From the NCBI GenBank assembly GCA_905178155.1, contig CAJINV010000004.1:9648625-9712624 (forward strand): a stretch of 64,000 nt of DNA, in the 5' to 3' direction. Positions 930 to 61,646 of the stretch are shown piece after piece. How positions within the stretch are numbered: the stretch's first letter is position 1; each line of letters begins with the position of its first letter. The stretch is from Amoebophrya sp. A120 (taxonomy: Eukaryota > Protista > Dinoflagellata). The translations under genes and the position numbers were made by a program. The notes below the pieces were generated by a model. That model worked only from the letters and a program-made list of their open reading frames with translations, ran no database searches and was not told where the DNA came from.

Positions 930-3900
930 CCACAATTCCCACGTCGGGGATGCGACGGCGACGCCCTCCGGGGGGGTCAACTTTGAACGGAACGAGACCT
1001 GGTATGGCGTTCTCAAATGTTACATTCTTAACTGTTACATAAATTTGTAATGCAAGAATGGCAAAAGTGAAAGGGGCAAGGTTGCGCCTTTTGCATTACA
1101 GATTTGGAGCAGATTATAATGCTATCTAGCGCGTCGAGAACCTGTCATGCGGAGAAGGCTTGAAATTGTGAAAAGTGTAAGTGATAGCATTTTGCATGAC
1201 AAATAATGTAACAGTTGAGAATGTGACGTTTGAGAACTCCATACCTGGAATCTGGGGCAGATGTGCCGTTCCGTGATGCAGAACGTGTTTATCGTGGGTT
1301 TTTACAGCTACCAGGGGGAGGTCCGCGCGGCGACGGAGTGGGGGCGGCCCGGGAAGGTCATGCAATTGCGCCCGGCGTACGGGAACAGCCTGGAAGCGCA
1401 GCTGCATAACCTGTTTCCGAAGAGAAAAGCCTTTGTGAAGTTCGACACAAGCGCGAAGGACTGGTACAAAGCCCCGCCGACTTTCCAACTGCCGTGCGAC
1501 TACGAGTTGGTCTACCCAGAAGTCCACTGCACGGAAAATGCGGACTACAAGAGTCGGAGAATATCTTTAACATCCTCTTCAACATCGTCGAATAAAACCG
1601 CATCGGGTTTATTTTCCTTCTCCGCGACCGAGCGGGTGGTGGATCGACGGATGGACAGCTGCAGGTTACAAGCCGACTTCAAGAACGGCAATATTAACAA
1701 GCTCTGCTACGTCGACGAGTACACCGGGGGGCGAAACATTTCCGTCCACAGTCTACTATGCTGTGCAAAAGTATCGTACTAGTAGAATTTGCATGACAAG
1801 TTCGCTCAGCATGACAAATCGAGTTTGTCATGCTGACTTACCTTGGGATTGAGGTTTGTGATGCACGACTGCCATTACTACGAGTACGATACTTTTGCAG
1901 AGGATATCTACCGACCGAGGTGTTCCGGCGGCTGCGCGCAGACCCGCTGAATTGGTTCAACACGACGCCGATACTGCAGCGCTGGGTGGGCGTGCAGTAC
2001 CACCCGGAGACGGAGCTGCAGTCCCACTACGGGGAGGTGCGGGCGAATAAATGTTACGATTTGGTCATTTTCTGCGACGAAACGACCGCGCTGGACGTCA
2101 ACCTCCGACCCGTGGCCCACACCGGCGAGGATAAGGAGGAGGTCTCCGCCGCGGCACAAAAAAGACTGATGAAGGAGTACGCCAAATTGCTAAAGGACCC
2201 GCCGCAGGGGGTGGAGGCGCACCCGCTGGAGGACAACATTTTGGAGTGGCACTTCCGGCTGACCGGGAACCAGGCGCCCTACACCGTATGGATTGCAAAA
2301 ATGTAAATGTCTGGGTCTGGAAAGTTGTGATGCAGGTCACTGAATAATAACCAAACTGTAATGCGCCGGCAAGCATGACAACTTTTTTCATGCTTCTGTG
2401 TTGCGTATTCCGCATGAGAAACTGCGTGTTTGCATGACAGGCAAGAGGAGCTCTTCGTTGCTACGCAATACAGATCCCAGAGTCATGCCAGTCTAGCACG
2501 ACAAATCTCGCAATCTCCCAGACGCAGACATTTTTGCAATCCATACACCGGGGGCAGGTACCACGGCGTGTTGGAGTTCCCGAGCTCGTTCCCGATGCAG
2601 CCGCCCAGCATTCGGATGCTGACGCCGAGCGGGCGGTTCGAGATCAACAAGCGCATCTGTTTGTCGATGTCCGATTTCCACGCGGAGAGCTGGAACCCCA
2701 GCTGGACGGTGGAGAAGATACTCGTCGGTTTACTGAGTTTCATGTACGAAGAGACCAGCGAATCGATCGGGAGCATGCTCGACCCCTGGGACGTGCGAAA
2801 ACGGTACGCACGGGAGTCGGAATTCTTTAACCGGGAGAATGAGGTGTATCTGTCGATTTTCAAAGCGGTGGATGACTTATGCAATGCAAAAGCATCGTAC
2901 TAGTACAAATCGCATTACAGATTTACTCAGCATGAGAAACGCAATTTGTAATGCTGTTTTACCTTAGGAGAGAGATTTGTCATGCATATTTGCAATTAGT
3001 ACGAGTGCGATACTTTTGCACTGGATATGGCTCCACAGTGGCGGGTTCGTCCTCCTCCTCCGCCACGGGCAACAAGCGGCAGCGCATGCTGAGCGGCGGC
3101 GCCGCAAACGAGTACGACGAGAACGATGACCAGCCCCAGTGCCGCTACTGCCTCTCCGGCGAGGGGGAACTGGTCGCGCCCTGCGACTGCAAGGGCACGA
3201 ACCAGTACGTGCACCTGCAGTGCTTGCGGCAGTGGCAGAAGTCGGTCTTGCTCACGCAGTCCACGCACCCGAAATTCCAGACGAGAATCGACGCGATCTG
3301 CAACATATGCATCGCAAAAGTATCGTACTCCTCGTATAAATGCATTACAAATACAAATTGCCTCAGCATGAGAAATAAAATTTGCAATGCGGATGTAGCT
3401 TCGGAACTAGATTTGTAGTGCATGTCTGCAATCACTACGAGTACGATATTTTTGCACAGGATACAACATCTGCGAGAAGCCCTTCAAGGGCCCCTTTCGG
3501 CCGAAGGACCGGGCGCAGGCGGTCTTGGAATTCGCGGGTGCCGAGATGGCGCAGAAGCTCAAGAAAGGGCACCTACTGGTCTCCTCCGAGAAGGAATCCC
3601 AAGAGTCCGCCGAGGCGATGGAGCGGCAACCGGAGTTGCGGCCGCATCTGGAACAGTGGACCTACGCCGTGTACCTGATCGCCAGTGAGGAACCAGCGTC
3701 CAGACGCGAGGACGGCCACGTGCTGGGCGTGAACCTCGTCGCGATGGCGAATCCCGAGCCACCACAGCGGGTGGATAGCAATCTGCCCGGGTTTCGGAGA
3801 CTCACCGTCTCCCCCATGAACGCCTGGAAGCAAAGCTACAGAAAATTGGTCGAGAAGCAGCCGTTTGTGCGGAAAATTTCCCACTACAACGGCGGGCCGG

Positions 3901-5020
3901 TGGAGCCGGACAAGTGTTTTGCGCTCGCAAATCTTCCCTCCTTGACGAAGACGAAGTACAAAGAAAGCAGTTTAAACATCCGGGATGACATGTACTTCGG
4001 AAATTTAGCGAGCATCGCGAATTTGGCGCAGCTTCACTACGATAACACGCGCGAAGCCTCCCATCTCCGCATCTACTGGGGCTACGCGGCCTGGGGCACG
4101 TCGCAGCTGCTGGCGGAGATCGCGAAGCGGCACTGGGGCATCAACACGGAGCCGTACGAATTCGAACCGTTGTATCCCGGAAAAAACACCCATCCCCATC
4201 CAGTTTTTGCGTGACAAACACTGCAAATTATGAATATTTTGCATGACAAATTGGATGTTTCGATAGTTTTCCGCTGCTGCTCCTCATGCTCCAACTTCAC
4301 GCAGTCGGGATCTCATCCGTGGTTTTCCTCCAGCTACGCCCAACACACCCGCGGGTCTCGCGTGCTGCTGGACTTCCACGACCCCGTCTCATTTGTTGGC
4401 GCCCTGCTGAGTAGTAATCCGTCAGTTCCCCGCAATCCGGCGTCCACCAGCCAGTTCCAGCTTTGCAGTGGCGATTAGCTTCAAGTATCTACCTTTCCAG
4501 AATCAGGCGCTTCCAGCTCGTCGTGCCCTAAGCTCAGCAGCGCACCCTCTCGGGTTGTGGCCTTTCCTCGGAGGTGGGGTTGGGCTTGGGGCGCCAGGCG
4601 AATGGACGGCTTCGCAGCTACGTTGTGATCGACAAACTGAGATCGACGATAATGGTTGCGTTGCTGGTCCTGTGCCAGTCGCGGGGCATGTTCGGGTGTT
4701 CCGGGCTGTGCTTTGTGCACCCCTCGGACCCCGCACCCCCCCGGGCTCAGTAGCGCAGTCTGTTAAGCATGACAAATTGGATGGGTTTCTGTTGTTGTCT
4801 CTCGGTAGAAATCGCGTTGTTCAATTTTCCGTTTTAGAGTTTACCGGGTATGCGGTTTCAAGTTTGTAGTTTTGTTTTACAAAGGGACGCCCTGCCCTTA
4901 GTTTCCCAACATGACAAATTGGATGGGGATGGGTGTTTCTCTCTGGATACGTTGCCAGTCTGGGACGACGCGGTCGTGAACATTTCCATGGCAAAGGAGT
5001 CGGAATATTCGAAGAAATGA
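930..5020 (+). CDS. 5'-partial multi-exon gene: erythromycin esterase-like domain + UBE2J/Ubc6-like E2 + RING-CH (MARCH-type) finger + DUF179 (YqgE/AlgH-like) domain. Exons approx. 930-1002, 1249-1756, 1912-2286, 2551-2877, 3033-3305, 3469-4172, 4955-5020
   Basis: Removing six TAT..ATA elements plus one DR each gives one frame. Esterase-like motifs: HNSHVGDATAT..NLGQMCR..GFYSYQGEVRAATEWG..LQRWVGVQYHPETELQSHY..YDLVIFCDETTAL. E2: KRLMKEY..HPLEDNILEWHF..PYTGGRYHG..FPMQPPSIRMLTPSGRF..ICLSMSDFHAESWNPSW. RING-CH: CRYC..PCDCKGTNQYVHLQCLRQW..CNIC. DUF179: GGPV..YWGYAAWGTSQLLAEI. Stop TGA at 5018-5020. Confidence 0.85.
1003..1243. mobile_element. Non-canonical intron / introner, singleton family, DR CCTGG
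   Basis: TIR TATGGCGTTCTCAAATGTTACATTC / GAATGTGACGTTTGAGAACTCCATA; CCTGG at 998-1002 and 1244-1248; spliced product reads NETWNLGQM. Confidence 0.9.
1757..1906. mobile_element. Introner family B (about 150 bp), DR TCTAC
   Basis: TATGCTGTGCAAAAGTATCGTACTAGTAG ... CTACGAGTACGATACTTTTGCAGAGGATA; spliced product reads VHSLPTEV. Confidence 0.92.
2287..2545. mobile_element. Introner family A (about 260 bp), DR CACCG
   Basis: TATGGATTGCAAAAATGT..CTGGGTCTGGAA / CAGACATTTTTGCAATCCATA; spliced product reads PYTGGRYHG inside the E2 domain. Confidence 0.93.
2878..3027. mobile_element. Introner family B, imperfect DR TGACT/TGGCT
   Basis: TATGCAATGCAAAAGCATCGTACTAGTAC / GTACGAGTGCGATACTTTTGCACTGGATA; removal joins the E2 exon in frame to the RING-CH exon. 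Confidence 0.88.
3306..3463. mobile_element. Introner family B, DR CAACA
   Basis: TATGCATCGCAAAAGTATCGTACTC / GAGTACGATATTTTTGCACAGGATA; spliced product reads AICNICEKPF and completes the RING-CH finger. Confidence 0.93.
4173..4949. mobile_element. Long introner (777 bp) with internal cargo, DR CGTTG
   Basis: TATCCCGGAAAAAACACCCATCCCCATCCA / TGGATGGGGATGGGTGTTTCTCTCTGGATA; CATGACAAATTGGATG occurs three times inside; spliced product reads FEPLPVWDD. Confidence 0.88.
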
Positions 5021-33654: not shown

Positions 33655-33683
33655 CTTTCTTTCTTTCTTTCTTTCTTTCTTTC
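33655..33683 (+). repeat. (CTTT)n microsatellite
   Basis: About seven tandem CTTT units. Confidence 0.85.
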
Positions 33684-38389: not shown

Positions 38390-38506
38390 AAAGTGTGTTT
38401 TCTCCCCAGCGTTAGAAGATTTGTTTTTCTTGCATCGCCTTCGCCACTAGGGCGGTCTCGCAACGCAAGTATCGATCTACTTCGTTGTGCCTCAATATCA
38501 CTGAAA

Positions 38507-41500
38507 ATGGACCTCCGCACGAATTCGCTCCTCCAGGACAAGTACAAGTCCGGCTCCAAGGAGCAGCAGCGCCTCTTCGGCGAGCAGCGCCGCACGGATT
38601 TTCTGGAGAATGCCGCCGCGGACAAGCGGAGTCGCATCGTATCAAGTGTAAAAGTGTCTGGGTCTGGAAAAGTGTACTTGTCATGCTAAATCTGAACCAT
38701 ACAAAAATCTGTGTTGCATGATTACCAATAAAGCTGTTCACTTTTGAGAAGGCCGAGAGGCAGTTTCTCATGCGGAAAAGGCATGGTAAAGATCTCACAA
38801 AATCTGTGATGCTATGGCATGCATCACAGACCTCACACGTCATGCAAAACTTGCATCACAAATCTGGCAGCTTCCATATATCGATTCTCATAGTATAGCA
38901 GGTCTCTGGGGTTCTGTGTGATTCAGTCACGGATTTCCTGTCTGCTTCTATTACAGTTGTGAACGCAAAGTATGGTTGAAAAATATATAAGTGCCCGGGG
39001 ATGAAGAAATGCTCGCGATGTTTTCGCGGTTCTGACCCTATGCCGCTCCAGCGCCTGTGGAGGCTTGTTTCCCCAGTGATAATGGACAATGGCAATGTCG
39101 GTGCGGTTGTTTTAGCATCACAAATCTGGCATTCTTCCAGACCCAGACATTTTTGCAATCCATACATCGAACAGATGCGCAGAATGGCGTTCGAGCGGGA
39201 TGTATCCTGTGCAAAAGTATAGTACTCGTAGTAATCGCAGTCATGCATTACAAATCTTCAGCCCAAGGTAAAACAGCATTTACAAATTCCATTTGTCATG
39301 CTGAGCTAATTTGTCATGCGATTGATATATCATCGAGACCCACGGAGCTTTACCCGCTAGACCAGGATTCTCCCATGCGAGCACCTTCTTCGTTCCTCCA
39401 GGCTTTTCTCGGCGTCCTTGGTCGGACGCTCCTGTTCTTGGTTGAAGTTGGACCCCGTGTGGCGGTAGCAGCTTCTCCTTTGCCCTGCCTTAGTAGCTCG
39501 AGCCTCGTTGCACTTCGTAAACTCTGCTCTTCGTAAAGTGAAGTCGTCTGGTGTTTTGTTGTCTTACCTTAGTACGGTAACCCCTTCCCCGCCTGTGTAA
39601 AAAACATTAACTTCCCATGTCCCCTTGCTTTTCTCGACTAAACAGTTATACTGTTATTTTTCTTCTAATGCTTACTTCCGCTGCTTTTTATTTATCAGTT
39701 TTAGTAGGGCATGATGCCAAAAGGGACGGACTGCCCTTAGAACTCCCATGTCATGCGATTGATACTAGTACGATACTTTTGCAGTTCATAGGATGCTGAC
39801 CAGCAAAGAGGGGGCTCATCTGCGAGGCAAGAAGTAGATCTGGAAGACGACGAGGACGACGACGATGAGGAATTCAGTACGATATCCGATATAATTGCGA
39901 CGTCGCAAGATCATGATCAGCAGTTGTTGTATGACAATCAAGATCTTTCTTCACCAAATGGTCGTATGCCGTCGTCCTCTCAGGAGCCTCTTCGAACAAA
40001 GCACAGGCACAACTACGACGAGGATGAGGACGATTTCGATTTCGACATGCATGAAAATTACGGTGCAACTACATCAAGACACAACTATCGCAACAGAAAC
40101 AACGGCACTTACAACAACGCCCGATCATCAAGCAGCAGAAATCCCAAATCCCTAGCCGCCACGGCGAAAAACAAGGCGAAGAAGCGATTTCGCGAGTTCA
40201 GTCAGGCGTTCATGCAGCCCGACTGGCTTCTCCCCGCCCCCGAGGTGATACCCGCGGATTTACTCGGGAACAGCAGTGGCACAACTGGATCGTCCTCGAA
40301 GAACGCCTCCCCCGGGGGCTGGTTCTGCTGCGTCCGCCCGGAGGGCGACCGAGTGATGATCTTCAGCGACGGGGGGCACACGCAAATTCGGCGCAGAAAC
40401 GGTACGGTGTTGCAGCAGTGGTTCCGCGACACCCGGTTTCCGAAAGGGCAGACGATTTTAGACGGCATTCTGGACTTGACCGCGGCGAATTTGGGTGGCG
40501 GTGACGCTGTTCTGAACAAAGATGGATCTACTTCCTCTAGTGCACCAATCGCAACTAGCAGCGGCATCATTTACGTTGTGGACGTGCTAGTGTGGGCCGA
40601 CGTCACTTTCTACGATGCGGAATTTGAGTTCCGGCACTTCTGGCTGCGATCCCGGCTCGAGGAACAGGATTGGGAGACCGAGATGCCAGTAGTGCCGATA
40701 TTATTGAACAACGGAGCTCTCGCTTCTGGCGGGTACCAGCAAGGAAATTTTGGTGGTGGAAATCAGCTCAAGAACTACCAGCAGTCGAGAAACAAACGGC
40801 GAAACAACAGGCGGCAGCAAAGAAAAAAGGACCAGCAGCAGCAGTTTCATCCAGGTGGAACAACCGCGCAAGATGGCAGCAACGATTCGTGGTGCGGTCC
40901 CAGTCCTCTAAACACGGGTGTTGTAGCTGCTGGTGGAGGCATGGAGGTCGACGAGCAAGCTGGTGCTAGACCTGCCGCAACAGCAGCAAACGGATCCTAT
41001 GCGAATGGACATTTGCCGGGTAATGGGAATGGAATGACCACCATGATAGGCCCTTGTGCGAAGCCGGCTGACGACCCGACTGTTGCAGGAAGTGGTACAT
41101 CAAATGGGGCAACTTCCATGATGGCCAACACCACCTCCTCCGCGGAATCGAAGCGCGCTAAGTATTTCCAAGCCCTGGCCACCGGCGCAATACATAACAG
41201 GCAGAAAGACGTGAAAAACCTCCAAATGACCGTTGACATGACACATCAAGCACAAGCTGCCCGTGGTCCAGATGAGCGATGTCATTCTAGCGTTACTATG
41301 AATGACGAAAACGACCTCTCCCTCTCCACAACCGCCACAAATCCACCTCGAGGCACGAACCCGCTGTACCCACTTGCCACCTTCAGCCTGCGTTTGATCC
41401 ACCAGCAGCAACTCTTTTCCCTCGACGACCTTCAAGCCCTCTACCGTTCCGCGCCTCCCTACGTGCACGACGGACTGCAGTTTTCGCACTCCCTCGGCCG

Positions 41501-42371
41501 GTACACTCCGGGATTGACGCCGTTGGTGTTGACCTGGAAGGATTGGCACTGCAGCCGCTTTGCCGTGGACGACCGGGAAGAACAGGAGTATTGTGTGTTG
41601 GAATTACGGGAAGACGGATTTTTGCGGACCTCGGACGGTTTGATAGTCGCCCAGCTGCCGGTGGACAAGGTCGGGGTTTCAGATGATGTGGACGGTGCTG
41701 GAGCTCCTGCATGTCCAAGTCCAATAGCGAGCCAAGACGCAACAAGTTGTGCGGCAACAGCAGATGTACGACGAGTACAAATGCGTGTTGGCGAACTCGA
41801 CCCTAGTTTCGCTGCTTCGGGAGGAGGTGAAGACGACCACGATACTGCGGAGGACCATATGGAAACGAGCGTGGAGCCCGAGAATGTTGAAGAAGATCCT
41901 GCCTTCTCCCACGACGAGGTCAACCAACTACACGTGACGAGGAACAGGAAGCAGAACAAACACTTCTACCGCATCCGGGGCATGCTGAAGCCGGTTTTCC
42001 AAGTCGGGTCCTTCTTGAAAATATCCATCAGTGCCGTCGACCGAGAGAACAGGCGGGTAACGGTGATGGATTTTTCATCTTCGACAAGCCAGCAGGGGGG
42101 CGCGAAGAAAGAGGAGCATCAACTTCCGCAGGAAGGAGAAAAACAGCAACAGCACAGTACTGTGACGCCTACTTGCAGCTCTTCTGGCATTACAAACAGT
42201 ATGATCGCCAACGCTCGTGGTGCGGTGGTGCGGAAAGCCAAGATTCGGACGTATGCGGATTCCTGGTGCAGGATTCAGTTTCAGCACATGCTCCGGTCCC
42301 GACCCAAAGACCACCTGTTTGAATTCCTGTGTCAGCAGATCGCGGCTGGCTGTGGGGCGACCATGGCGTGA
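38507..42371 (+). CDS. SNUPN: Snurportin-1 (m3G-cap snRNP import adaptor). Exons 38507-38639, 39170-39202, 39796-42371
   Basis: IBB-like N-terminus QRRTDFLE..KRSRIEQMRRMA. Cap-binding domain motifs FMQPDWL..P.DL, WFCCVRPEGDR, RRRNG, TILDGI, YVVDVLVW, EFEFRHFWLRSRL, DGLQFSHSLGRYTPGLTPLVLTWKD, KIRTYADSWCRI. Confidence 0.85.
38640..39164. mobile_element. Introner family A with internal insert, DR CATCG
   Basis: TATCAAGTGTAAAAGTGTCTGGGTCTGGAA / CTTCCAGACCCAGACATTTTTGCAATCCATA; GCATCACAAATCTGGCA duplicated at 38853 and 39115. Confidence 0.9.
39203..39790. mobile_element. Introner family B with internal insert, DR GGATG
   Basis: TATCCTGTGCAAAAGTATAGTACTCGTA / TACTAGTACGATACTTTTGCAGTTCATA; TGTCATGCGATTGATA duplicated at 39312 and 39749. 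Confidence 0.9.
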
Positions 42372-46954: not shown

Positions 46955-48232
46955 GTGCAGTAAGGGAATGGCGCGCGGCGAGGACGACTTCCTACACCTT
47001 CTCTCATCAATCGGGATTTTTCTTTTTTCGGAGAACGCACATACTTGCATTTGCTTGGTGACCTTCGGATACGCATTTTTATCCACAACTCTGCAGCTTT
47101 CTCCATTAAGCACGTCTCGGAACAAGAAGTACTCTTTTGCTTTTCTTTGAATGTTAGTTTTCGTAACGACAACAGGAACAGCCATGTCGACTTCTCAAGA
47201 TCGTGCGGTGTCTTCACAGTCAGAGGGACGCAGTGCCTCACGATTTTGGGATTAAAAGTCAAAAATTCATGTTTAATTTTTTTTCTTTTTATTTTTTGCA
47301 CATATTTGGTTTCGGAGTCGTGCCCTTTTTCTTCCTAAGTAGTCTGTTATCTTTTCCCCTTTAGATACTTCCTTTATATATATGTTTTCCACAGTCGTTG
47401 TACATCGTGGTTGTGCTTCCAGGTTCCTTCCACGTGTAGTAAGTTCCCATCCCGTTTCATATGGTATCGTTTTTGTAGTTTATTGTTATTGCTCCTAATG
47501 CTATAAGTACAAGTAGCTAATCCCTAACCCCCCCCCAGCACATCAACGCCCACGATCAAAGGAGTAGGTACCAGAATGCCCATGAATATTTGCAAAAACA
47601 GCAGTAGCTGCTCCCCGGTCTTTGCCCAGGAATAGAAATTCCATTGCATATCCTGCTCCCGATGAAATGCATCATAGTCGTCTGTTCCTGTAGTTGCACC
47701 CCATAGAAGCACGTCCCCGGCGGCATAGCCTGTCGCGTCACAGGAAACACGACATCCTCGACCCCCACATGACCCTTTTCCCCCGAAGCAACTTTCATCC
47801 CCCTCGAATTCCGTTCCACCTGGCCGGTACGTCGTGTGCATGGTAGTGTTCTTTCACTTCCGTGTCATTATCGTGTTTAGCCAAGCACGGCCGTGTTCCC
47901 TTGTCTGCCGATAGTTCGGAGGAGGTCGCTTCTCCGCTGGAGAAGAAAAAAAATAAGGGGAGAAAGTAAAGTTGCATGTGTAGAAGCATCTGTCTATGCT
48001 CGCCGAGGTTCATCATGCAAGAAAATCCACGCGCAACTGCAAAATCTTCGTAACGTCCTCACATCATGACGTGTTGAATTTATTTCTGCTCGCTCTGGAT
48101 CCTGTATGTAAGTATGATGTATTTCTGCGCGCTTGCTTTTTATTACTAACACCGTATAAGAAAACAAGCACAAGTGCCGTCGAAAGCGAAACTGCAACAC
48201 CGTACAGGCTGAGGCTAGGTCACATACGCATT

Positions 48233-48484
48233 CCCACTTGCAAATATGTGTGGGTCTGGAAACTTGTGATGCTAAAATGTGCATGATGGAAACACTCCCG
48301 AATGCAGTCCGGCATGACAACTTCCCAAAACGCTTTCTCATAGGCAATCCGCATAAGAAACTGCGTTTTTGCATGACAAAAGAGGCTGCGACTTTTGTTG
48401 GTTATGCAATACAGATTTTCTAGGTATGGAAAGCTAGCATTACAAGTTCCAACCTTCCAGACCCAGACACTTTTACAATCCATA
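48233..48484. mobile_element. Family-A introner with damaged left end, at the breakpoint of the partial Nsa1 duplicate
   Basis: Left CCACTTGCAAATATGTGTGGGTCTGGAA (no TAT, no matching DR); right CTTCCAGACCCAGACACTTTTACAATCCATA followed by Nsa1 exon CTGCG. Confidence 0.75.
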
Positions 48485-48977: not shown

Positions 48978-49242
48978 TATCAACTGTAAAAATGTCTGGG
49001 TCTGGAAGATTCTGACACTTGTCACGCACGTTTTGCATGAGCCATAATGTCTGTGATGCATACCCTAGCAATACAGATTTCTTGAGGGCTTCTTGATGCC
49101 TATCCCGCATGACAAATGCCTCCTCAGCGTAGGAAAAATTGCATTCCCTACTTTGGTACTCATGCAATACAGATTTTTTTGGAATCCAAATGCAGCATCA
49201 AAAGTTGCATTCTTCCAAACCCAGACATTTTTACATTTGATA
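48978..49242. mobile_element. Introner family A (reverse orientation), DR GGAAG
   Basis: TATCAACTGTAAAAATGTCTGGGTCTGGAAG / CTTCCAAACCCAGACATTTTTACATTTGATA; the empty site in intact Nsa1 has one GGAAG. Confidence 0.95.
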
Positions 49243-49305
49243 GGAAGGAAGAGAGACCCATTACCGCGTCGGTGTTGACCGACAACGGTATTCTGGCTGT
49301 TGGCG

Positions 49306-49454
49306 TATGAATTGCAAAAGTATCGTACTCGTATAAATGCATTACAAATTTCCTCAGCATGAGAAATAAAATTTGTAATGCGGATTTGCCTCAAGAAGAA
49401 GATTTGTAATGCAAGACTTGCATTTATACGAATACGATACTTTTGCAATGCATA
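49306..49454. mobile_element. Introner family B, DR TGGCG
   Basis: TATGAATTGCAAAAGTATCGTACTCGTATAAATGC / GCATTTATACGAATACGATACTTTTGCAATGCATA; empty site present in the intact copy. Confidence 0.95.
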
Positions 49455-49588
49455 TGGCGACACGGTCGGGAACCTCGATATTTTCGACTTGACCAAAACG
49501 AAACCCTATTTGACGGGAACGCCGGACTCCTTGCTTTTTCAGAACAAGATGGTCAAGGACATCCCGAAAATCGCCTCCATCGCCCACC

Positions 49589-49858
49589 TATGGAAACCAA
49601 AAATGTCTGGGTCTGGAAGATTGCAACTTGTAATGCTGTCTTTGGATTCCAAAAAAATCTGTATTGCATGACCAGCGACAGGACTCCAGTTTGTGTTACG
49701 CGGAGAGGGCATTTCTCATGCGGAATAGCCATTAGGAAGCCCTCTACAAAAACAAATCTGTGTTGCTAGATCATGCATTAGAGCAGGCATCAATCATCAT
49801 ACAAAATATGCATGACAAGTCTGCATCCTTCCAGACCCAGACGTTTTTGCATTTGATA
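49589..49858. mobile_element. Introner family A, DR CCACC/CCATC
   Basis: TATGGAAACCAAAAATGTCTGGGTCTGGAAG / CTTCCAGACCCAGACGTTTTTGCATTTGATA; empty site GCCCATCAC. Confidence 0.95.
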
Positions 49859-50091
49859 CCATCACGAGTACGTTTGGAAGGGGCAAATCATCAAGTACCT
49901 CGGTGCGTGTGCCCCCGAGGGCTCCGCGATTCGATCGCTGTGCTTTATCCCGCAGACAAAACAACTCGCGAGCGTCGGGCTGGGCCGGTTCGCGACCGTC
50001 CACAAGGCTTTGGAGTCGGATAAACGACGGGAACAGGATAAAAAGACGTACATGAAACAAAAACTAACCGCAGTCGTGGCGTTACCTCCGG

Positions 50092-50303
50092 TATGGAGAG
50101 AAAAAAGTTTGTCACAGTCACTAACTTGCTCTTGCAGGCTTTGCATTACAAATTTTCTCAGCATCACAAACTTTCCATGTATTGCAGAAACACTAGGGAA
50201 ATCCCTAATGAAGTTTGGCTGTGATGCATTTTTACGCATGACAAACAATTTTGCGTTGCAAGAATGCGCATGAGTGATCGTGACGAACTTTTTTTCTTTG
50301 ATA
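50092..50303. mobile_element. Introner singleton family, DR TCCGG
   Basis: TATGGAGAGAAAAAAGTTTGTCAC / GTGACGAACTTTTTTTCTTTGATA; spliced product reads LPPVDL as in the intact copy. Confidence 0.93.
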
Positions 50304-50364
50304 TCCGGTGGATCTGAGCAAGGTGAAAGTGGAGGGGGAGGAAGCGGAGACGCAGAAAACGGAT

Positions 50365-50643
50365 TATCCTGAGTAAAAATGTCCCCACACCAGAGTCAAG
50401 ATGGGGATTTTGCAACACAAACCTAGAACTTTTGGGGGTCACGCATCACAAGTTGCAGTCCGTAGTGTAGTGCATGTTCGCAAGGCCAGCTGCATCAGAA
50501 ATCCATCTGCTCATCCTGTTTACAGCATTACAAATTCCAAAACACAACTAAAAATGACTCTCCTGGCGATGCGCATTACAAATGTTCCTGTCATTGCAAA
50601 TCTGCATGACAACTCTGGTGCGGGTACGTTTTTACTCAGGATA
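50365..50643. mobile_element. Introner family C (reverse orientation), DR CGGAT/CGGAC
   Basis: TATCCTGAGTAAAAATGTCCCCACACCAGAGT / ACTCTGGTGCGGGTACGTTTTTACTCAGGATA. Confidence 0.95.
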
Positions 50644-51867: not shown

Positions 51868-53614
51868 ATGGTCAAGAAAACTACCAGCGCTGCTCTTGCA
51901 ACCACCCTCGGGGGGGGGGGGGGTGCTCGCCGCTGCGACGTCGCGCACGCATTCGTGGACCGGAAGTGAGTATGGCCCGCCCAGGTGTCACATTGTCAGG
52001 CGTTACCGTCAGAGTCAGAGTTTATGACGTTGCAATCACCGGAGCACAGAAAGAGATGTTGAGAAGCATTATTATTACGCTTAACGGCTTTTTTTTTTGC
52101 AAAACTAGCACTACACCAATCCCGTACTAAGCGGATTACCAAATACGTCGAGCAACCCAACGGCGTCCCGGCTGTATAAAAGAAATTCAGTGTTTTGCAA
52201 AGGTTGAGGCTCTTTGAAGTATTGGAATAGGCGAGAGTGTAACGCCTGAGCGGGCCATAATGAAACGTCGGGCTTTCTGGAGGTGAATGGCAAGGCTGAC
52301 GCTGCGAGCGTCTGTCAATATATGTCCCCCCTGATGGAGGGTGGGATATTTGCAACGGATGTAGGCCAACCCGGTAAGTAGTACCTCTACTAGAATTTAG
52401 TACGCGTGCTCAAGAATTAGCTCATGAATAGCTCCTCCAGCTGCACACCTAAAGTTCTGGAACGCCTGGATGGAGGGGCGCAGGTTCATCGATAGCCGCC
52501 TCTACTAGTGCAATAAGCGTGGTCAACTTTTAGCTCATGAAAGCTCCAGCTGTACTCTTGACGTTCTGGAACGCCACCACCCTCCGCCCGCAGCCGAGCC
52601 GAGCCGTCAAGCTCTCCACTTTTAAAGTTGCGACACTCCTAAAGTTCCGAGCACTCTTAAAGCCCCGCCCGCAGCCGAGCACTCCTAAATTTCCGACACG
52701 CCAAAGTGCCCCATGTTATGCTTATGCTATGCTAAATGTAAAATTCTGATCATCTGACTCAGGGCGGTACATAACTAAGTAGTCAAAGGTTTGTTTCTGT
52801 TTGTACTCACCTTATATTCCAGGCGCCCCCGAAACGGCAAAAAACAGCAAAAAACTGATCGGTTTATTGCATTCAGAAACCCCAGCGAGGGAGTGTGGGT
52901 GGCGCGCCAGAGCGGTGCGCCCGCATTGCGTCGGGCTTGCGGGCGAAGCCGCTGCGGGTAGTCGGAGTCGAGAATCTCGACCCGGGCCCAAAGTTGTTGA
53001 GAATCTCGACTCCGATGGCCCCCAAACCGCATAAGGAATTTAACTTCTTTGCCCACGGGCTGGAATCTGAGAGAAGAGTCGCCGCTTTTGCGAACCCGGG
53101 AAGAGATTGCCGCTTCAAGAAAGTTGAAGACTTGTCGTGCGAAGTAGGGGCCGGCAGGTGAAGGCCAATCGATCCCGAGCAACAGCGGCACTCCTAGGCT
53201 AAGACGGAGGCCGCTGACCCTTTTTTCCTCGCAGCCCGCGGGCCGTTTTTTTGTTTCATTATGTCCTCCCATACTAGCCATACATTTACATTATAGGAGG
53301 TTTGCTACTTCATATTACATACAGGGCCGATGCGCGAAACGGGAAACATGTGGCCGTGGCCCGTGGGTGGAGGTCTTCAGAAGACAACAACCTGCATCAA
53401 GTTCAAGAAGCAGAAGGACGAAAAGAAGTGCCCTTCAAACGAAGATAACAAGTTGACTACATATTCTTCTTTTGGTCATACATCTGCCCTTTTCAAAGCC
53501 GAAGAGTCGTCGAGCAGTGCCAATTACGCGGCCATCACTCTGATGCTTCAAGAGGATGTCGATTTCTTGGCCAGATGTCTGATGTGCCCGGATCTGTGCA
53601 AGGATAGCGCTTGA
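51868..53614 (+). CDS. Paralog of the small secreted Cys-rich protein. Exons 51868-51970, 52265-52373, 53325-53614; +1 frameshift in a G14 run
   Basis: MVKKTTSAAL..THSWTGSETSGFL..C..WPW..TCIKFK..C..ARCLMCPDLC aligns with 46574-46954. Canonical intron G|GTAAGT (52374) to ATACAG| (53324) is in frame. Confidence 0.7.
51971..52259. mobile_element. Introner singleton family, imperfect DR GTGAG/ATGAA
   Basis: TATGGCCCGCCCAGGTGTCACA / TGTAACGCCTGAGCGGGCCATA; the empty site GGAAGTGAAACG is in the paralog at about 46670. Confidence 0.88.
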
Positions 53615-55811
53615 GTCTCGTACTTTCGTTCTTTTTTTTTTCGGTTTATTCTGGTTGACGTTGATCAACAACAAGTACGTTTATATTCGAAAAAGTACCA
53701 AAACCTTTATCACAAAAGTAGAAGTACTTCAAAAAAGTTATACGTAGTACAAAACACAAAACCAAAAGTTAAAGTAACAATATCAGCCAGCTTTGAAGAT
53801 TTTCAGTACTGTAGCCAAATTTCAGGCAACGTCGCGAATATGTTGTCTTCGCCCACAGTAGCGCAGAATAACTCTGTGTGGCTTTCCGTTCTCATGATTA
53901 TGGTCTTTCACTTTGCTTGAATATGAATTTGTTTTTGTAGGAGCGTCTAGGTTTTTTTTCATCGTCACATCATAAAGTGCAAAGTCAAAGTTTCCCCACC
54001 GATCGAAAAGCAGATTTGAAAAGCTATAAACCAACGGAAAGTAGACACCTTCCAAACAGATGTTGGAGGGAGCACGCTGCGTGTTTCGACTCTGTTTTAA
54101 CTCAGTCTTGCTTGACTCGAAGATTTAAGAAAACCCCCTTCCCGATTGCATGCATGTCTACAACATGATAGGCGGACGCGAAGCCTTGACCTTCTTCGGC
54201 ATAAAATCCAAAAAAAAAAAATATAAAAGCAATGCTGTAGAAGGTAGAGTTTCAGTATTCGTTTAAAGAACGCATTGGCGTATGCGTAGCAAACTCTTAT
54301 AATTTTTCATCTTTTCATCCCCTTGCCTTTAGCAATACTTACTTTAATGTTTTCCACAGTCGTTGTACATCGTGGTTGTGCTTCCAGGTTCCTTCCACGT
54401 GTATTAAGCCCCATCCCGTTTCATAGGATATTGTTTTTACTTATTTATTGTTATTGCTCCTAATGCTATAAGTACAAGTAGCTAATCCCTAACCCCCCAG
54501 CACCGCAACGCCAACGATCGAAGGAGTACCAGAATGCCCATCAATATTTGGAAAAAGAACAGTACCTGCCCCCCGGCCTTTGGCCAGGAAGAGGAATTCC
54601 ATTGCATATCCTGCTCCCGATGAAATCTGTAGCGTAGTCATCCGCTCCTGTGGTTGCACCCCATAGAAGCACGCCCCCGGCGGCATAGCCTGTCGCGTCA
54701 CAGGAAACACGACATCCTCGACCCCCACATGACCCTTTTCCCCCGATGCAACTTTCATCCCCTTCGAATTCCGTTCCACCTGGCCGGTACGTCGTGTACA
54801 TGGTAGTGTTCTTTCACTTCCGTGTCATTATCGTGTTTAGCCAAGCACGGCCGTGTTCCCTTGTCTGCCGATAGTTCGGAGGAGGTCGCTTCTCCGCTGG
54901 AGAAGAAAAAAAATAAGGGGAGAAAGTAAAGTTGCATGTGTACTAGAAGCATCTGTCTATGCTCGCCGAGGTTCATCATGCAAGAAAATCCACGTGTAAA
55001 CTCTTCGTAACGTCCTCACATCCTGACGTGTTGAATTCATTTTTGCGCGCTCTGGATCCTGTATGTAAGTATGATGTATTTCTGCGCGCTTTCTTTTTAC
55101 TACACCGTATAAGAAAACAAACACAAGTGGTGCCGTCCGTCGAAAGCGAAACTGCAACACCGGACAAGCTGAGGCTACATCCCGTACGCATTCTTCTTCG
55201 TCCCGTCGGACTGAGTTTTGGTCCTGTAAAAATATCTTCAAGAAACCGCTTCGTGAATCGTCCCTCCTCAAAGAAATCGTTCAACTTCGCACTTTTGTAG
55301 TACGTCCAGTTTACCTCGTACACCTTTTCCGTGTGTGATGCGTTTGATGAAACTCGTTCGGTACTACAGAACGACAGCAGTGGTCGGTCAACTTGTATTC
55401 ATCTCGTTTACTGCAGCGGACCACGACGAATTGCTTCTTCAATTATATTCCTCCTGTCACTTTCCCTGTGAATTTTCAGGCTCAGGCACCATCTCGGTCG
55501 CATTTATGCTCACCTCGTACTGGCGATAATTAAAGTATTTCTTCAGCACGTCGGTTGTCCTTGTCTGTTTCGATTTCCTCGGTGTGCTTTTAGTACCATT
55601 ATCCTACGACCTCTACCTCCGCTCGGTTTTGTTTTGGTTGGTCCCGAACCAACTTTGCTTCCTCACAAGTAGCTTCGGTTTGAAATCGAAGCTGAACATC
55701 TTCAATCTGTAGTACGTGTCAACTACCATCAAATTACTAGACGTTACAACATATACGACCACTATCTACATGTTTGCTTTTTACCAAGTTGGTAAGTACC
55801 ACCCGCCCAAA

Positions 55812-58800
55812 ATGGTTTTCTCCACGATCCGCACAGTGACCAATTTTACCCAATTTGTCCTGAAAGACCTCCCCGCGTCAGTCATGGTGGGCGCGGCGGC
55901 AACAGCACTGTACTTCGCGGAGGTACAGGCGGCGCTGAAAGTTGCGGGCGTGATGATCGGCGCGAACCCGCCGCTCGCGGCGTTATGCGCCTTCTTCGCG
56001 GTTGTGTTTTCCACCATTATCCTGTGCAAAAGTATCGTACTCGTAGTAATCGCAGTCATGCATTACAAATCTCCATGCCAAGGTAACACAGCATGACAAA
56101 TTTCATTTGTCATGCTGACCGAATTTGTAATGCGATTTCTACTAGTACGATACTTTTGCAATGCATAACCATGGCGGTGCTGCAGTACAAGGGCGATTTC
56201 GACTTTTTCTACTTCGCCAGGTATCAACCGTAAAAATGTCTGGGTCTGGAAAAATGCAACTTGTCATGCTCAATCTGAAGCATGCAAAAATCTGTGTTGC
56301 ATGATTACCAAAAGTCGTCCAGTTTTGATCAAGTCGGGAGGGAGTTTCTCATGCAGGATAGGCATGAGAGAGATCGCACAGAATCTGTCGTGCTAGGTCC
56401 TGCATTGCAGACCTCATGGGTCATGGAAAAGCTGCATGACAAATCTGACAATCTTCCAGACCCAGACACTTTTGCAATCCATACCAGGACGCGCGTCCGG
56501 AAGGACTACTACGACAGCATCGCGGAACTGGACTTTGACGGCTTTTACCAAACCATGCAATTGGACTACGAGAATTTGGTGAGATGGGTGTCAGAAAACG
56601 GAAACTACGTTTACACCGTATCCTATGTAGAAACGTCCCCACCCCATAGTTGTCATGCGGGTTTGCAATGACAGGAACATTTGTAATGCGAACCTACATG
56701 AGAGGAATTTCCCATCGTGTTTTGAAATTTGTAATGCCGTAAACAGGATAAGAAGGTGGGTTTGTGATGCGACTGTCCTTGCTAAGCTGCACTACACTAC
56801 AAAGACAAACCTGTCATGCATGGCTCCGAAAACTCCTGGATTTGTGTTGCCGAGTTCCCAACTTGACTATGGGGTGGGGACGTTTTTACATAGGATACAC
56901 TGTCGTGTCCGCAAACGTTTTGGATTTGTATTACTACCTTCTCGTCGATTTCGGGTTTATCCTGAGTAAAAACGTACCCACACCACAGTTGTAATGCAAA
57001 TCTGCATGCTGAAAATGTTTCTCATGCGGAGCCCCATGAGAAGCATTTTCCAATCGTGTTTTGCAATTTGTCATGCTCCAATCAGCATGGTCAGATAGAT
57101 CTGTGATGCTGCTGAGCTAGCTCAAACAGCACTACAATACGAATCCAAATTTGTCATGCAAAACAGCTAAAACTTGTGGATTTGTCTAGCCGATTCCCCA
57201 TCTTGACTCTGGTGTGGGTACGTTTTTACTCAGGATAGGGTTGCCGGTTTTGTTAGGCGCCATGGCGCTCGGCTCCGTCCTCGGCGTGGTGGGTCTGTAT
57301 GTACTCTTTGTCGGGCTGCGAAGGATGGTTTTTGGAAGAAATAAGGTTAATGTTCAACAGCACCCAAATTATGCACAGTTGATCGACGGCGCAATTTCTA
57401 GCAGTTCTGTTGGTGTTACTCTTCCGCAGATGACACAGATGAACAGATCCGGAAAGATTGCGAAGCCGAAGGAATCCGTGTCCATCCGCTCCCCGAATCT
57501 GTTAGCTCCTCCGAGTAGAAGATCTTCGAAAGAGAGTGTGACAAACATAAGTCCGCGTCCGGTTGACAGCAAAATGAATTCCGCACGACCGGTTTCCCCG
57601 ACCGCAACCTCGAGCCGCGCGTCTCCGCCAGGCAGTCCCCGCCGGCGTGTGTCCCGCACTGAGGCGGAGTACGAGCAGGACCAGCTCCTTACGCCCTACG
57701 ATGCGCAAGTGCTTTCGCCAACAGGGAATCAACCGAAGGACCGGTTTAAAAACCGGCTTTCCTCCTCGTCGCGGTCGCCGTCCCCCGTGGCTCGCGGCGG
57801 ATCCAAATCCTCCGAACGGAGTTCCAAGGGGAAGGGCGGGCTGGGCCGGAGCAGATCCCCTGTACCGGGGGCGGTGGATCCCTCGTCAAAATCGGAGAAT
57901 GATGAGTTGAATTCGAGCAGAAATCTATTGGAACAGTTGCAGCGAAAATCCGTGACCAAGACGGATTTGGAGTTCAAGGAACAGTCCACCGCACTGCAGC
58001 AAATTGGGGAGTACTTGGACCGACTGACGATGAGTGCCTTCAACTCCGGCCCCTTTGGAGGGATATCAAATGCAAAAATGTCTGGGTCTGGAAGATCGCA
58101 ACTTGTCATGCTAAATCTGATTCATGCAAAAACTCTGTGTTGCACGATTACTACCAACAGCCGTCCTTTTTTACCAAGTTGAGAGAAAATTTTTCATGCA
58201 GAATAGGTATGATAGATTTTTCACAGAATTTGTCATGCTTGGCACTGCATTCCAGACCTCATGGGTTATGTAACACCTGCATGACAAACCTTCCATTCAT
58301 CTAGACCCAGACATATTTGCAATCCATAAGGGAACAAGAAGCACAAGCAGCTGGTGAACCCGTACTACGTGCACCCGGCTTCGTATGGATGTGTCAGAGT
58401 TGAAATCGACAAAGTTGAAATGATTTGTCATGCATAAAATGCGACACAGAGACTGACTCTATTGCTGAAGGCGCAAGGGAGGCAGATTCTAGTGCTGGTA
58501 AGGGTCAAGCATTGGGCTGCTGACTAGCATGACAGGGAGCAGCCATCTTGCCCTAAACAGCATGACAGACTTGCTTCAGAGGCCAGGAAAACTTGTCATG
58601 CGCCGATTGATAACTGTGGGTCCAACTGGTATAGATTTCATGCATCGCAAATTATTTCAACTTTGTTAATTTCAATCCTGACAGTTCCATACTTCGGATT
58701 TGCCCGGGCAGAAATCGAAAAAGTACGACTTTGTGCAGCCGAAGTCGATTCAAATGGCGGAGCAGATCCACCAAGAGGCGGCTGAGAAGAAAGCGATGGA

Positions 58801-61646
58801 ACTAGAATTATACCAGCAGGAGCAACAAGATCTCTTGATGAACACAAACAACAGAAGTACTTCTCTCCGAGGGTCCTCTTCGTCCTCTGCTTCGAAAATG
58901 GACAAAAAACGTCGACCCTTCTACCTCCGTGCGGGCTCCTCGCGGAACAAGCACGCCTTGTCCCACTCCGCCTTCGAATTGCCCGGCGTGTTGCAGAAAA
59001 AACGGAAACTCGGGACCGTGAGGAAGCCGCCCCCGCTTGATTTCGGCGAGCTGGATTACGAAAAGGCGAAACAAGCCGGCTTGCACCACTTGATCCCGGC
59101 GGAGAAACTTGATGTTTATCCCGCTGGGGTCGTTTATCAAATGCAAATATGTCTGGGTCTGGAAGGTTGCAACTTGTGATGCTGTTCTTGGATTCTAAAA
59201 AAAATCTGTATTGCATGACCAGCAAGAGGAGCCCAGTTTGTGCTACGCGGGCGGGAGGCCATTTCTCATGCGGAATATTGCATCAGAAAGCCCTCTGAAA
59301 ATCTGTGAAGATGCTAGGCCACGCATTACAGGAATCATGGGTCATGCAAAATGTGCATGACAACCCTAGCATCTCTCCAGACCCAGACATATTTGCAATT
59401 GATATCGTCACCCCCGGAGCGATTTCCGCGAACGAGGAAGCGTCCGCGGCGTCCACACACGGAGGAAGGGATATCAACTGTAAAAATGTCTGGGTCTGGA
59501 AGATTCTAAACTTGTGATGCTGTCTCTGGATTCTGAAAAAAATTGTAATGCATGACCAGCAAGAGGACTCCAGTTTGTGCTACGCGGAGAGGTCATTTCT
59601 CATGCTGTAGAGGCATCACAAAGCGCTCTAAAAATATGTGATGCTACGGCATGCATCACAGACATCATGGGTCATGGAAAATATGCATGACAAATCTAGA
59701 AGTCTTCCAGACCCAGACATTTTTACATTTGATAAGGGATAACGAAGACGCAACTAACTCCCTCGAGATGAACACCAACAGCCTGGTGGACCTCGGTGAG
59801 ACCACACTGACCGCTTCGAAGCAGGAGATCGGGCGGTCGATGGGCAGGCGTATGAAATGCAAAAGCATCGTACTCGTATAAATCGCATGACAAATCTCCT
59901 CAGCATGAGAAATATAATTTGTAATGCGGATTCAACTTGAGAAGGAAATTTGTAATGCATGAATGCGATTAATAGTACGACTACGATACTTTTGCACAGG
60001 ATAAGGCGGACCAGAATCCTGTTCGGGAATCTGATCAACTCGCACAACATATCCCCCAGAAAAAGACCGACAGGTCATATTTGTAATGCAAAAATAAATA
60101 GACAAAAAAATCTGTATTGCATGCCCTAAACAGGATGCTATGGCCTCGCCCATGACAGATTTTCCTGTGTATTTATTTTTGCATTACAAATATGACCTGT
60201 CGGTCTTTTTCTGTGGGATACAACAAGAAGCGGCTTGTCGCAGGAGCCTCGGCTCCGCGGGACAGTGCCGCCGGACGTGCAGCCCCGCAGCCGAGTTCTT
60301 ACATGGTGGCACAGAAACGGCGGGACCAAATGCGCGGCCGCGCGAGATCTCGGTCTCCCTTCTTTTCGACGAGGAATGAGGATGATTTGGAGAAAAATCA
60401 TTTTGGTTCATCTCAACATCTCCAGTTGTACAACGACGAGTTATCGGGTACCACGATGACAAACGCCGACTTGCACCAGCACAACTATCAGCGGTCCCAG
60501 TCCGCCGGTACGCAGCCCTTTCAGCAACAGGAGGAGGAGAAGATGCAAACGCAGCTGCTCGCGATGCACTTCGAGTCCAAGTCGAAGCAGCAAGACGAGC
60601 GGATCTTGCACGCGCAGCAGTACGCGAGACAACTGGAGCTCAAGATGAAGCAGATGCAGAAGCGCGCCGAGCTCGCGGAAGAGAAGTTCCACATGCTTCG
60701 CTACGCCCAGCAGGAGGCGGGGGCGCCCAGCAAACTGCGGCTCGCGGGGGAGACCTTCGAAACGCAAATCCAAGCGGCTATGGCGATGGACGCGGCGCAG
60801 GCGGATCCGCAGCAGATGGCCCGGGTCGTGCACGACCTGGAGCAACAGCACAACCGGATGCTATCAAATGCAAAAATGTCCGGGTCTGGAAGAGTGCATG
60901 TTTGTCATGCTTGTCGGGCATGACTCTTAAATCTGTAATGCACGCTACCCAAGAGCCCAATTTTGCTGTCATGCAGAAACGCAGTTTGTCATGCAGAATA
61001 GGCAACATCTAGAAGCTCAAAAGCTTTGTCATGCTGAGCCAGCACTTGTGGCGTCTTCATGATACGCCACCCAGCATCACAAGTTTCCAGACCCAGACAT
61101 ATTGGCAATGCATAGATGCTGGGAAAGTGCAAGGTGGAACTCGCGAACAAGGAGGCGAAAATATCCTGAGTAAAAATATCCCCACCCCAGAGTTGTCATG
61201 CAAATCTGCATGCCAAAAAAGTTTCTCATGCGAAGCCCCATGAGAAGCTTTTTCTAGTCGCGTTTTGGGATTTGTGATGCTAGAAATAGCATGAAGTGCT
61301 AGATCTGTGATGCTGCTGAACTAGCTAAACAGGATCACACAAGGAAGACAAATTTGTCATGCGAAGCAACCAAAGTTGGCTGATTTGTCTAGCAGGTTTC
61401 CCATATTGACTCTGGTAATATGGGGATGTTTTTACTCAGGATAGAAAATGGACAAGATCCGCGCGTTCGCAAAGGACCGAATCGAGAAGCTGCAGCTGAA
61501 AGTCAAAGAAATGGAGCAGCAAAACTCGAAGCTGGTCGACGTTCCGGCGGAAAAATTTGACCAACGGATCAAGTTCTTGACGGACCGGGGCGTGGAGCTG
61601 GAAAAGCAAAAAGCAAAATTGACGAAGAAGAACGCGGACCTGGAGG
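55812..61646 (+). CDS. 3'-partial hypothetical protein (N-terminal transmembrane segments, Ser-rich middle, C-terminal coiled coil) interrupted by 12 introners
   Basis: All 12 junctions restore one frame: FSTMAV, FARTRV, VYTVVS, DFGLPV, FGGNKK, PASDLP, GVVTPG, GRDNED, MGRRTR, SHNKKR, NRMLGK, EAKMDK. Confidence 0.8.
56018..56167. mobile_element. Introner family B, DR ACCAT
   Basis: TATCCTGTGCAAAAGTATCGTACTCGTAG / CTACTAGTACGATACTTTTGCAATGCATA. Confidence 0.93.
56222..56483. mobile_element. Introner family A, DR CCAGG
   Basis: TATCAACCGTAAAAATGTCTGGGTCTGGAA / CTTCCAGACCCAGACACTTTTGCAATCCATA. Confidence 0.93.
56619..56897. mobile_element. Introner family C, DR CACCG/CACTG
   Basis: TATCCTATGTAGAAACGTCCCCACCCCATAGT / ACTATGGGGTGGGGACGTTTTTACATAGGATA. 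Confidence 0.93.
56958..57237. mobile_element. Introner family C, DR GGGTT
   Basis: TATCCTGAGTAAAAACGTACCCACACCA / TGGTGTGGGTACGTTTTTACTCAGGATA. Confidence 0.95.
58064..58328. mobile_element. Introner family A, DR AGGGA
   Basis: TATCAAATGCAAAAATGTCTGGGTCTGGAAG / TCTAGACCCAGACATATTTGCAATCCATA. Confidence 0.93.
58384..58691. mobile_element. Introner singleton family, DR CTTCG
   Basis: Imperfect TIR of about 55 bp, TATGGATGTGTCAGAGTTGAAATCGACAAAGTTGAAAT / ATTTCAACTTTGTTAATTTCAATCCTGACAGTTCCATA. Confidence 0.92.
59135..59404. mobile_element. Introner family A, DR TCGTT/TCGTC
   Basis: TATCAAATGCAAATATGTCTGGGTCTGGAAG / TCCAGACCCAGACATATTTGCAATTGATA. Confidence 0.93.
59472..59734. mobile_element. 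Introner family A, DR AGGGA
   Basis: TATCAACTGTAAAAATGTCTGGGTCTGGAAG / CTTCCAGACCCAGACATTTTTACATTTGATA. Confidence 0.95.
59851..60003. mobile_element. Introner family B, DR AGGCG
   Basis: TATGAAATGCAAAAGCATCGTACTCGTA / TACGACTACGATACTTTTGCACAGGATA. Confidence 0.93.
60050..60220. mobile_element. Introner singleton family, almost fully palindromic (arms about 65-70 bp), DR CAACA
   Basis: TATCCCCCAGAAAAAGACCGACAGGTCATATTTGTAATGCAAAAATAAATA / TATTTATTTTTGCATTACAAATATGACCTGTCGGTCTTTTTCTGTGGGATA. Confidence 0.95.
60862..61114. mobile_element. Introner family A, DR GATGC
   Basis: TATCAAATGCAAAAATGTCCGGGTCTGGAAG / TTCCAGACCCAGACATATTGGCAATGCATA. Confidence 0.93.
61162..61443. mobile_element. Introner family C, DR GAAAA
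   Basis: TATCCTGAGTAAAAATATCCCCA / TGGGGATGTTTTTACTCAGGATA. Confidence 0.95.

Follow-up and report, generated by a model that had tools for sequence, protein, structure and literature searches.

Introners make up approximately 17% of the assembly of Amoebophrya sp. A120 and fall into 1,954 families; in the part of the original description available to us, both their mobiliser and their splicing route are given as unknown, and Farhat et al. report no transposase in A120 (PMC7789003). The sections at hand of this and a second description (PMC7789003, PMC12130899) portray elements with TAT-initiated inverted repeats carrying an A-run, direct repeats of 3–5 nt, non-canonical junctions and thousands of copies, as in the DNA analysed here, and contain no description of an internal motif or spacing. 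The family lengths listed in the accessible part of PMC12130899 (~107, 149, 208, 256–261, 278, 305 and 320 bp) match those of the families found here, and whereas most A120 families are classified there as ‘TIR DNA, Unknown’, here a uniform 5-bp target site duplication (TSD) and one internal site tie the families together. The string GCATG does not occur in the supplement text of PMC7789003 that was at hand (text only, the S25 logos lying outside this scope), and the motif was not found in the 12 supplementary files of PMC12130899, out of 14, that were searched by term. Thus, the introners are known, whereas the motif and its spacing apparently are unreported in the literature searched, although Roy et al. 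2023 (Curr Biol) may bear on this point.

The window, that is, the whole analysed stretch of 64,000 nucleotides, contains 28 elements totalling 7,682 nt; this count includes one that is missing its left end, one whose left end has decayed and the motif-less element at 51971. The scan, which relied on inverted ends and direct repeats with no start triplet imposed, delineated elements that start with TAT, end with ATA and are flanked by a 5-bp target duplication. The elements and associated features are as follows (strand given where assigned; sites are copies of the motif; TIR, terminal inverted repeat; P0001, gene model of an A120 protein):

750..929, family B element without an intact left end (missing or decayed), 6 sites; P0001 resumes at 931
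1003..1243, family 7 element, TSD CCTGG, 4 sites (47< 95> 144< 196>); skipped by P0001
1757..1906, family A element, TSD TCTAC, 4 sites; skipped by P0001
2287..2545, family B element, TSD CACCG, 7 sites, in a UBE2J-like coding region; skipped by P0001
2878..3027, family A element, TSD 4/5, 4 sites; skipped by P0001
3306..3463, family A element, TSD CAACA, 4 sites; skipped by P0001
4173..4949, family 8 element, normally ~109 bp, here 777 bp, sites in one orientation; skipped by P0001
25995..28405, six elements, exact inverted copies of the 48232–50643 set, masked; within the 9.64-kb duplicate
38640..39164, insert-bearing family B element, 17-bp flanking repeat from a motif site, 7 sites
39203..39790, insert-bearing family A element, 16-bp flanking repeat overlapping a motif site, 3 sites
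42187..42196, + strand, sole exact match outside elements, in the snurportin-like ORF 39792–42368; consistent with chance
48232..48484, family B element, decayed left end, bounds approximate, 6 sites
48978..49242, family B element, TSD GGAAG; paralogue (~44935–45019) empty at this site
49306..49454, family A element, TSD TGGCG; paralogue empty at this site
49589..49858, family B element, TSD 4/5, 5 sites
50092..50303, family 9 element, TSD TCCGG; paralogue empty at this site
50365..50643, family C element, six co-oriented sites, spacings 31, 49, 33, 48, 31
51971..52259, motif-less element, TAT..ATA, TIR 19/22, TSD 3/5 (GTGAG/ATGAA); precisely spliced
56018..56167, family A element, reverse orientation; spliced (RNA-type contig)
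56222..56483, family B element, 6 sites; spliced (RNA-type contig)
56619..56897, family C element, six co-oriented sites; spliced (RNA-type contig)
56958..57237, family C element; spliced (RNA-type contig)
58064..58328, family B element; spliced (RNA-type contig)
58384..58691, family 6 element, sites 46< 148> 181> 214< 263>; spliced (RNA-type contig)
59135..59404, family B element; spliced (RNA-type contig)
59472..59734, family B element; spliced (RNA-type contig)
59851..60003, family A element, forward orientation; spliced (RNA-type contig)
60050..60220, family 13 element, sites 36< 67< 136>; spliced (RNA-type contig)
60862..61114, family B element, 6 sites
61162..61443, family C element, six co-oriented sites

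The end pattern of family B retrieved at least 154 further loci from one assembly (683 kb including overlaps), a sample in which family B is over-represented; the pattern had no match in viral_contigs. Two proteins linked to the retrieved contigs cluster at 90% with A120 proteins, indicating the same or a very close species, so that the loci do not constitute an independent lineage. Elements were called from their ends and TSD alone, the motif being unused, with one false call in the shuffled control. The resulting 402 elements (24 in the window and 378 in the loci, among the matches listed) fall into 14 multi-copy families and 6 singles. Their anatomy is that of MITEs: they are short, non-coding, bounded by TIRs and TSDs and multi-copy, with family consensuses of 109–323 bp. 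The TSD, for which a match at four or more of the five positions was demanded, is perfect in 343 and carries one mismatch in 58 of 401 elements, and an A-run occupies positions 11–15 of most family consensuses, being weaker in families 5, 6, 7 and 11. The elements at 1003, 4173, 50092, 58384 and 60050, which the initial annotation took for singletons, are members of families with 11, 9, 5, 14 and 2 copies, respectively. With their TAT-initiated inverted repeats containing an A-run, direct-repeat boundaries and non-canonical junctions in mRNA, the window elements are the known introners of Amoebophrya sp. A120. In families 0, 2 and 3 of the loci, the TIR arms within one element match each other at positions 11–30 better than shuffled pairs do (0.894 versus 0.867, 0.774 versus 0.607 and 0.833 versus 0.796, respectively), part of which may be explained by subfamily structure. 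A rescan that dispensed with the TSD was contaminated by false ends at internal TATs, and its null correlation (rho 0.05) was discarded.

Four elements are missing from an intron-poor paralogue at 44.9–45.5 kb, where the target is present in one copy, and accordingly represent true insertions. Tandem paralogues occupy this part of the window (43122–45700 versus 48200–50900 and 46575–47950 versus 51860–54900), and a WD40-like copy lacks six elements that are present in its truncated sister, providing natural empty sites; among the called elements, no insertion is common to both paralogues. The segment 21745–31384 is a 9,640-nt inverted duplicate of 45254–54893 with 100% identity, the first copy being bounded by Ns on both sides. 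This duplicate is probably an assembly artefact and was masked in all counts.

Contigs X1–X4 were assumed to be RNA, which is supported by their precise skipping of elements and of one GT..AG intron. For all ten elements in 56013–60219, the RNA-type contig is without exactly the element plus 5 nt, with 991, 583 and 877 nt missing, as predicted; these lengths were read from contig coordinates, the joint table being swamped by repeats. Gene model P0001 consists of seven pieces that jump the elements at 1003, 1757, 2287, 2878, 3306 and 4173, and the exon at 2547–2870 is 100% identical to the A120 protein. Element length plus 5 nt is spread evenly across the reading phases (143/132/126, n = 401), so the elements must be spliced; flanks are clearly non-coding in only 2 of 298 elements.

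Exact matches to GCAT[GTC]ACAAA number 63 in the window, 29 on the forward and 34 on the reverse strand. Ten of them lie in the duplicate, which leaves 53 independent matches, 52 inside the 28 elements and one in the 46,577 nt outside; dinucleotide-shuffled elements contain 0.22 exact matches on average and 3 at most. A matrix trained on the window elements, GCA(T/a)(G/C/T)A(C/g)A(A/g)(A/g)(T/c), is looser than the exact consensus, and its position 5 is A in 1 of 136 window sites and in 0.00 of 1,799 sites, among the matches listed. The initial annotation had described the motif as repeated inside elements of several TIR families, which these counts bear out. Its further statement that both orientations occur in families A, B and C and in the presumed singletons breaks down for family C and the element at 4173, where all sites share one orientation. 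The region at 5–21 kb, where it had noticed none, has zero exact matches; in exons, where it had noticed none either, there is one exact match (42187), and looser sites occur in the common intron of the paralogues. Across the wider sample, exact matches amount to 5.0 per kb in elements versus 0.12 per kb in the 403 kb outside, among the matches listed, so that the motif is far from equally frequent in the two compartments. At least one site was found in 376 of 378 locus elements, among the matches listed, versus 11–30 in five pair-block shuffles, and in all 82 elements of families that are absent from the window, again among the matches listed. Besides the element at 51971, another motif-less one is L061:15569–15907 (TAT..ATA, TIR 19/22, TSD 3/5, zero sites).

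We propose, with a probability of roughly 0.6, that the motif array is a putative subterminal DNA-binding site of one shared transposase, or of a dedicated cofactor, rather than a mark for removal or splicing. The main rival is a host DNA-binding protein, associated with chromatin or transcription, that reads the array and either aids co-transcriptional splicing or silences and packages the element, selection acting on each inserted copy; we regard this as a real, if disfavoured, possibility. The distribution of the motif bears on both. Looser sites also persist in decayed elements and in an intron common to the paralogues at ~44622 and ~48620, as a host protein would lead one to expect, although the same explanation sits poorly with a window that is otherwise nearly free of the motif. 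Among the matches listed, 37 of 171 matrix sites outside elements lie in elements with decayed ends recognised under relaxed rules, and others cluster in old introns. Three old introns with GT or AG ends (~44622–44820, ~48620–48820 and L028:14700–14835) have no clear TIRs and have kept motif copies, which suggests that introners decay into canonical-looking introns.

Four expanded elements, at 4173–4949, 38640–39164 and 39203–39790 in the window and at L055:3862–4492, contain foreign inserts flanked by direct repeats of 13–18 bp, each beginning at a motif site or overlapping one; in 4173–4949, the repeats are 17–18 bp long and begin at the motif. Breaks or template switching at the motif may lie behind these repeats, and the long elements L020:505–1608, L026:632–1465 and L054:571–1051 lack such a flanking repeat. 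Elsewhere in the window, an intact-looking ORF of 1,427 codons with an RVT_1 domain (34166–38446, reverse strand), probably a non-LTR retrotransposon, has zero exact-consensus sites. The motif is also absent from a 17-bp tandem array and neighbouring repeats at 61738–62621 and 62780–63660, copies of which in locus L023 are 79–87% similar.

Could the motif be a functionless relic of one repeat-rich ancestor of all families, kept by internal duplication and conversion? The TAT..ATA ends and 5-bp TSD common to all families, the interior homology of families 4 and 6 and of families 3 and 5, and the motif-centred rearrangement evident in the four expanded elements are in line with such an origin, which we nevertheless consider very improbable and in large part already refuted. 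In all nine families with eight or more copies, the core columns are conserved at 0.92–0.98 versus 0.65–0.81 for other interior columns, a partly circular comparison given that core columns were those of sites in at least 70% of copies. Position 5 varies in these families as the interior does and yet avoids A. A conserved core implies that the motif is not decaying neutrally. Moreover, once motifs and outer ends had been masked, alignment at z>5 was confined to 2 of the 91 family pairs (six beat all 100 shuffles), the other 89 falling below z=5, and the fixed spacings described below recur across families that cannot be aligned; simple descent combined with neutral decay is therefore unlikely. 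The families probably share a remote ancestor, the motif being what survives. Accordingly, the description of the TIR families as unrelated needs qualification: most masked pairs are indeed unalignable, but all families have TAT..ATA ends and a 5-bp TSD, and families 4 and 6 share interiors.

Comparison of related copies bears on the stage at which the constraint operates. Among nearest-neighbour pairs with 90–95% identity, mismatches affect 79 of 1919 core and 807 of 9348 interior positions (ratio 0.48). From 0.28 in distant pairs, the core-to-interior mismatch ratio climbs to 0.56 among the closest ones, where it is still below 1 (p=0.13), and this rise is expected if filtering acts when copies transpose again; a weaker constraint among the closest pairs is harder to reconcile with a host protein acting on each inserted copy. 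Conversely, elements with a mutated TSD show a motif mismatch of 0.040 (n=53), no higher than the 0.044 (n=313) of the others, so that decay after insertion is not seen, which agrees with the host-protein explanation.

The sites are arranged with a regular geometry. Motif copies in the same direction recur 31–33 bp apart, and 18 of 56 adjacent pairs are same-direction neighbours at 30–34 bp, compared with a null mean of 2.7 and with 0 of 5,000 randomisations reaching 18. The first site that reads TTTGT..ATGC when followed inwards from an element end lies 36–38, 46–48 or 56–59 bp from that end. This first outward site is phased at 10.5 bp, with R=0.66 over 24 ends and R=0.65 (p=0.00025) when each of 17 families or singles contributes one value, and a scan of periods from 7 to 25 bp peaks at 10–10.5. 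Both the 30–34 bp window and the phasing test were picked after the histogram had been seen, and the families possibly share ancestry. Sites in the opposite orientation show no phasing (R=0.28), the spacings of 17–18 and 46–49 bp do not correspond to whole helical turns, and a 16-bp lattice (R 0.41–0.47) is not established. The same-direction spacing and the stepped end distances are a case of helical phasing. We take the likeness of this arrangement to the Sox-Oct composite element and to RAG 12/23 spacing as coincidence or analogy. Phasing at 10.5 bp is a property of the duplex, so the geometry points to DNA. A host DNA-binding factor would explain the helical phasing, as well as the independence of orientation, equally well; against it stands that the phase is set relative to the very end that is cut, which is the place of action of a transposase.

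The initial annotation proposed that the motif marks a segment for removal, in which case it might be read in RNA by a novel splicing or excision factor standing in for the missing U1 function. The ubiquity of the motif, which 400 of the 402 non-canonical intron elements of the window and the loci carry (among the matches listed), is compatible with such a mark, as is the absence of U1 reported in the available part of PMC7789003. The orientation data are mixed. The host strand could be called for 163 of 401 elements, and those with sites in a single orientation are divided between the two strands (15 versus 12; family C, 8 versus 5 relative to the transcript), as would not be expected of an RNA mark. 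Inverted site pairs likewise show no compensation, the variable base covarying in 0 of 30 (lowest p 0.11), and the predicted terminal hairpin includes only a minority of the sites. In favour of an RNA mark, family B, one of the 13 families tested, has an orientation bias of 45:22 with respect to transcription (p=0.007), with subfamilies that vary in orientation (14:4, 8:7, 11:2 and 1:4), and sense strands carry 418 UUUGU-type versus 318 GCAU-type sites. Taken together with the duplex nature of the phasing and with the element described next, we hold recognition at the RNA level to be improbable.

The element at 51971 has no motif site (best matrix score 3.0), as the initial annotation had noticed, and is nevertheless removed precisely. 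Contigs X1, X2 and X3, all from one sample, skip it as 294 nt (289+5) with the joint at 51966/52261, and the depth of the spliced contigs is 57–88 versus ~4 for unspliced contigs. Hence, in the one motif-less element examined, the motif is not required for excision; together with the occurrence of either strand in mRNA and the absence of covariation, this splicing argues against the proposed removal mark, and efficient splicing of a motif-less copy is also at odds with a host protein that aids splicing. The ends of the element fold into a hairpin as in motif-bearing elements, and its possible intron ends range from TG..AA through GT..GA, the 3′ end being non-canonical. Both TSD copies are mutated, and the change in the left copy creates a possible GT donor. 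The splice 51966–52264 retains in the mRNA the first base of the left TSD copy and the last base of the right one, restoring GTGAA, which matches the paralogue near 46670; mismatched TSDs could serve to map splice positions across the genome. The TIR resembles those of families 7 and 11, and the interior is unalignable to the four families tested. We rejected the possibility that 51971 is a decayed copy of family 11 or 7, given that it has support from the TIR only, the interior aligning no better than shuffles.

The mobiliser reading, in which the array serves a transposase, would account for these features as follows. The array would recruit one enzyme to all families, and copies of the protein bound on one face of the helix, with 31–32 bp corresponding to three helical turns and the first site shifting in steps of ~10 bp, might build a synaptic complex at both ends. 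Families with drifted outer TIR letters could then keep using the same enzyme, whereas copies that lose sites would stop spreading. Splicing, in turn, may depend on the hairpin that the ends form in RNA, together with the target duplication, so that a copy without the motif would still be removed. As for the enzyme, the most plausible candidate is an integrase-like DDE transposase from the neighbourhood of Ginger and IS3EU, a guess from end chemistry. For the single trans-acting factor initially envisaged, the constrained site across families and the fitting spacing are in accord, binding remaining putative on sequence grounds, and of the two roles suggested for it, that of mobiliser is favoured over that of splicing or excision factor.

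Several results count against the mobiliser. No transposase domain was recognised in the 101 long ORFs scanned (of 156), a result that also suits a host protein; among long TAT..ATA candidates of up to 12 kb (~0.6 Mb of the genome covered), no coding or autonomous element was found, and no ORF of the long elements is recognisable as a transposase. To these must be added the lack of post-insertion decay, a core-to-interior ratio that stays below 1 even between the most similar copies, the persistence of sites in decayed elements and old introns, the skew of family B, the excess of UUUGU-type sites and the fact that the splicing counterexample comes from a single element and a single sample, with a possible GT donor.

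A single conserved site with fixed spacing would merge the 1,954 families into one system, offer a direct bait for the mobilising protein, mark autonomous copies and decayed introner-derived introns, and separate the signals for mobility (the array) from those for splicing (terminal hairpin and target duplication). In a broader version, which we consider rather unlikely, all TAT..ATA families of A120 would form one transposon system whose identity resides in the helically phased internal array and not in the TIR, its reader being either an integrase-like transposase of a kind so far undescribed or a host protein that has been domesticated. Bound to DNA, this factor may also license the removal of most copies independently of splice sites, so that a single DNA mark would couple mobility and splicing.

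Among known transposons, Ginger2 elements have TGT..ACA termini, unlike the TAT..ATA found here. According to the sections of PMC10045372 at hand, the 4–5 bp TSD of Ginger2 fits the 5 bp observed here, whereas IS3EU/GingerRoot shares the TA..TA termini but generates a 6-bp TSD. Closer to home, the accessible part of PMC12130899 lists A120 family 38 with TA/TA termini and a 5-bp TSD, as here, and with integrase-like homology. As introns, the elements resemble the non-conventional introns of euglenids and the MITE-derived introns of Fritillaria, which are likewise bounded by TIRs, flanked by TSDs and characterised by non-canonical junctions and terminal pairing; the available part of the source describes no conserved internal motif array in them (PMC11282704).

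As subterminal repeats, the short conserved sites repeated inside the ends in either orientation are most reminiscent of the Emigrant/Lemi1 MITEs (PMC1636448) and the hAT transposon Hermes (PMC10368747). In the parts of these reports at hand, short repeated sites occur in both orientations inside the ends of TIR elements and their arrangement differs between the two ends, as here, and binding by the transposase has been demonstrated; transposases bind such repeats cooperatively, and the arrangement shapes the complex (PMC1636448, PMC10368747). Unlike in Emigrant and Hermes, the site described here is 10–12 bp long, is not a copy of the TIR and recurs at fixed spacings in at least 14 families with different TIRs, in elements that are also introns and to which binding is, from the sequence, putative.
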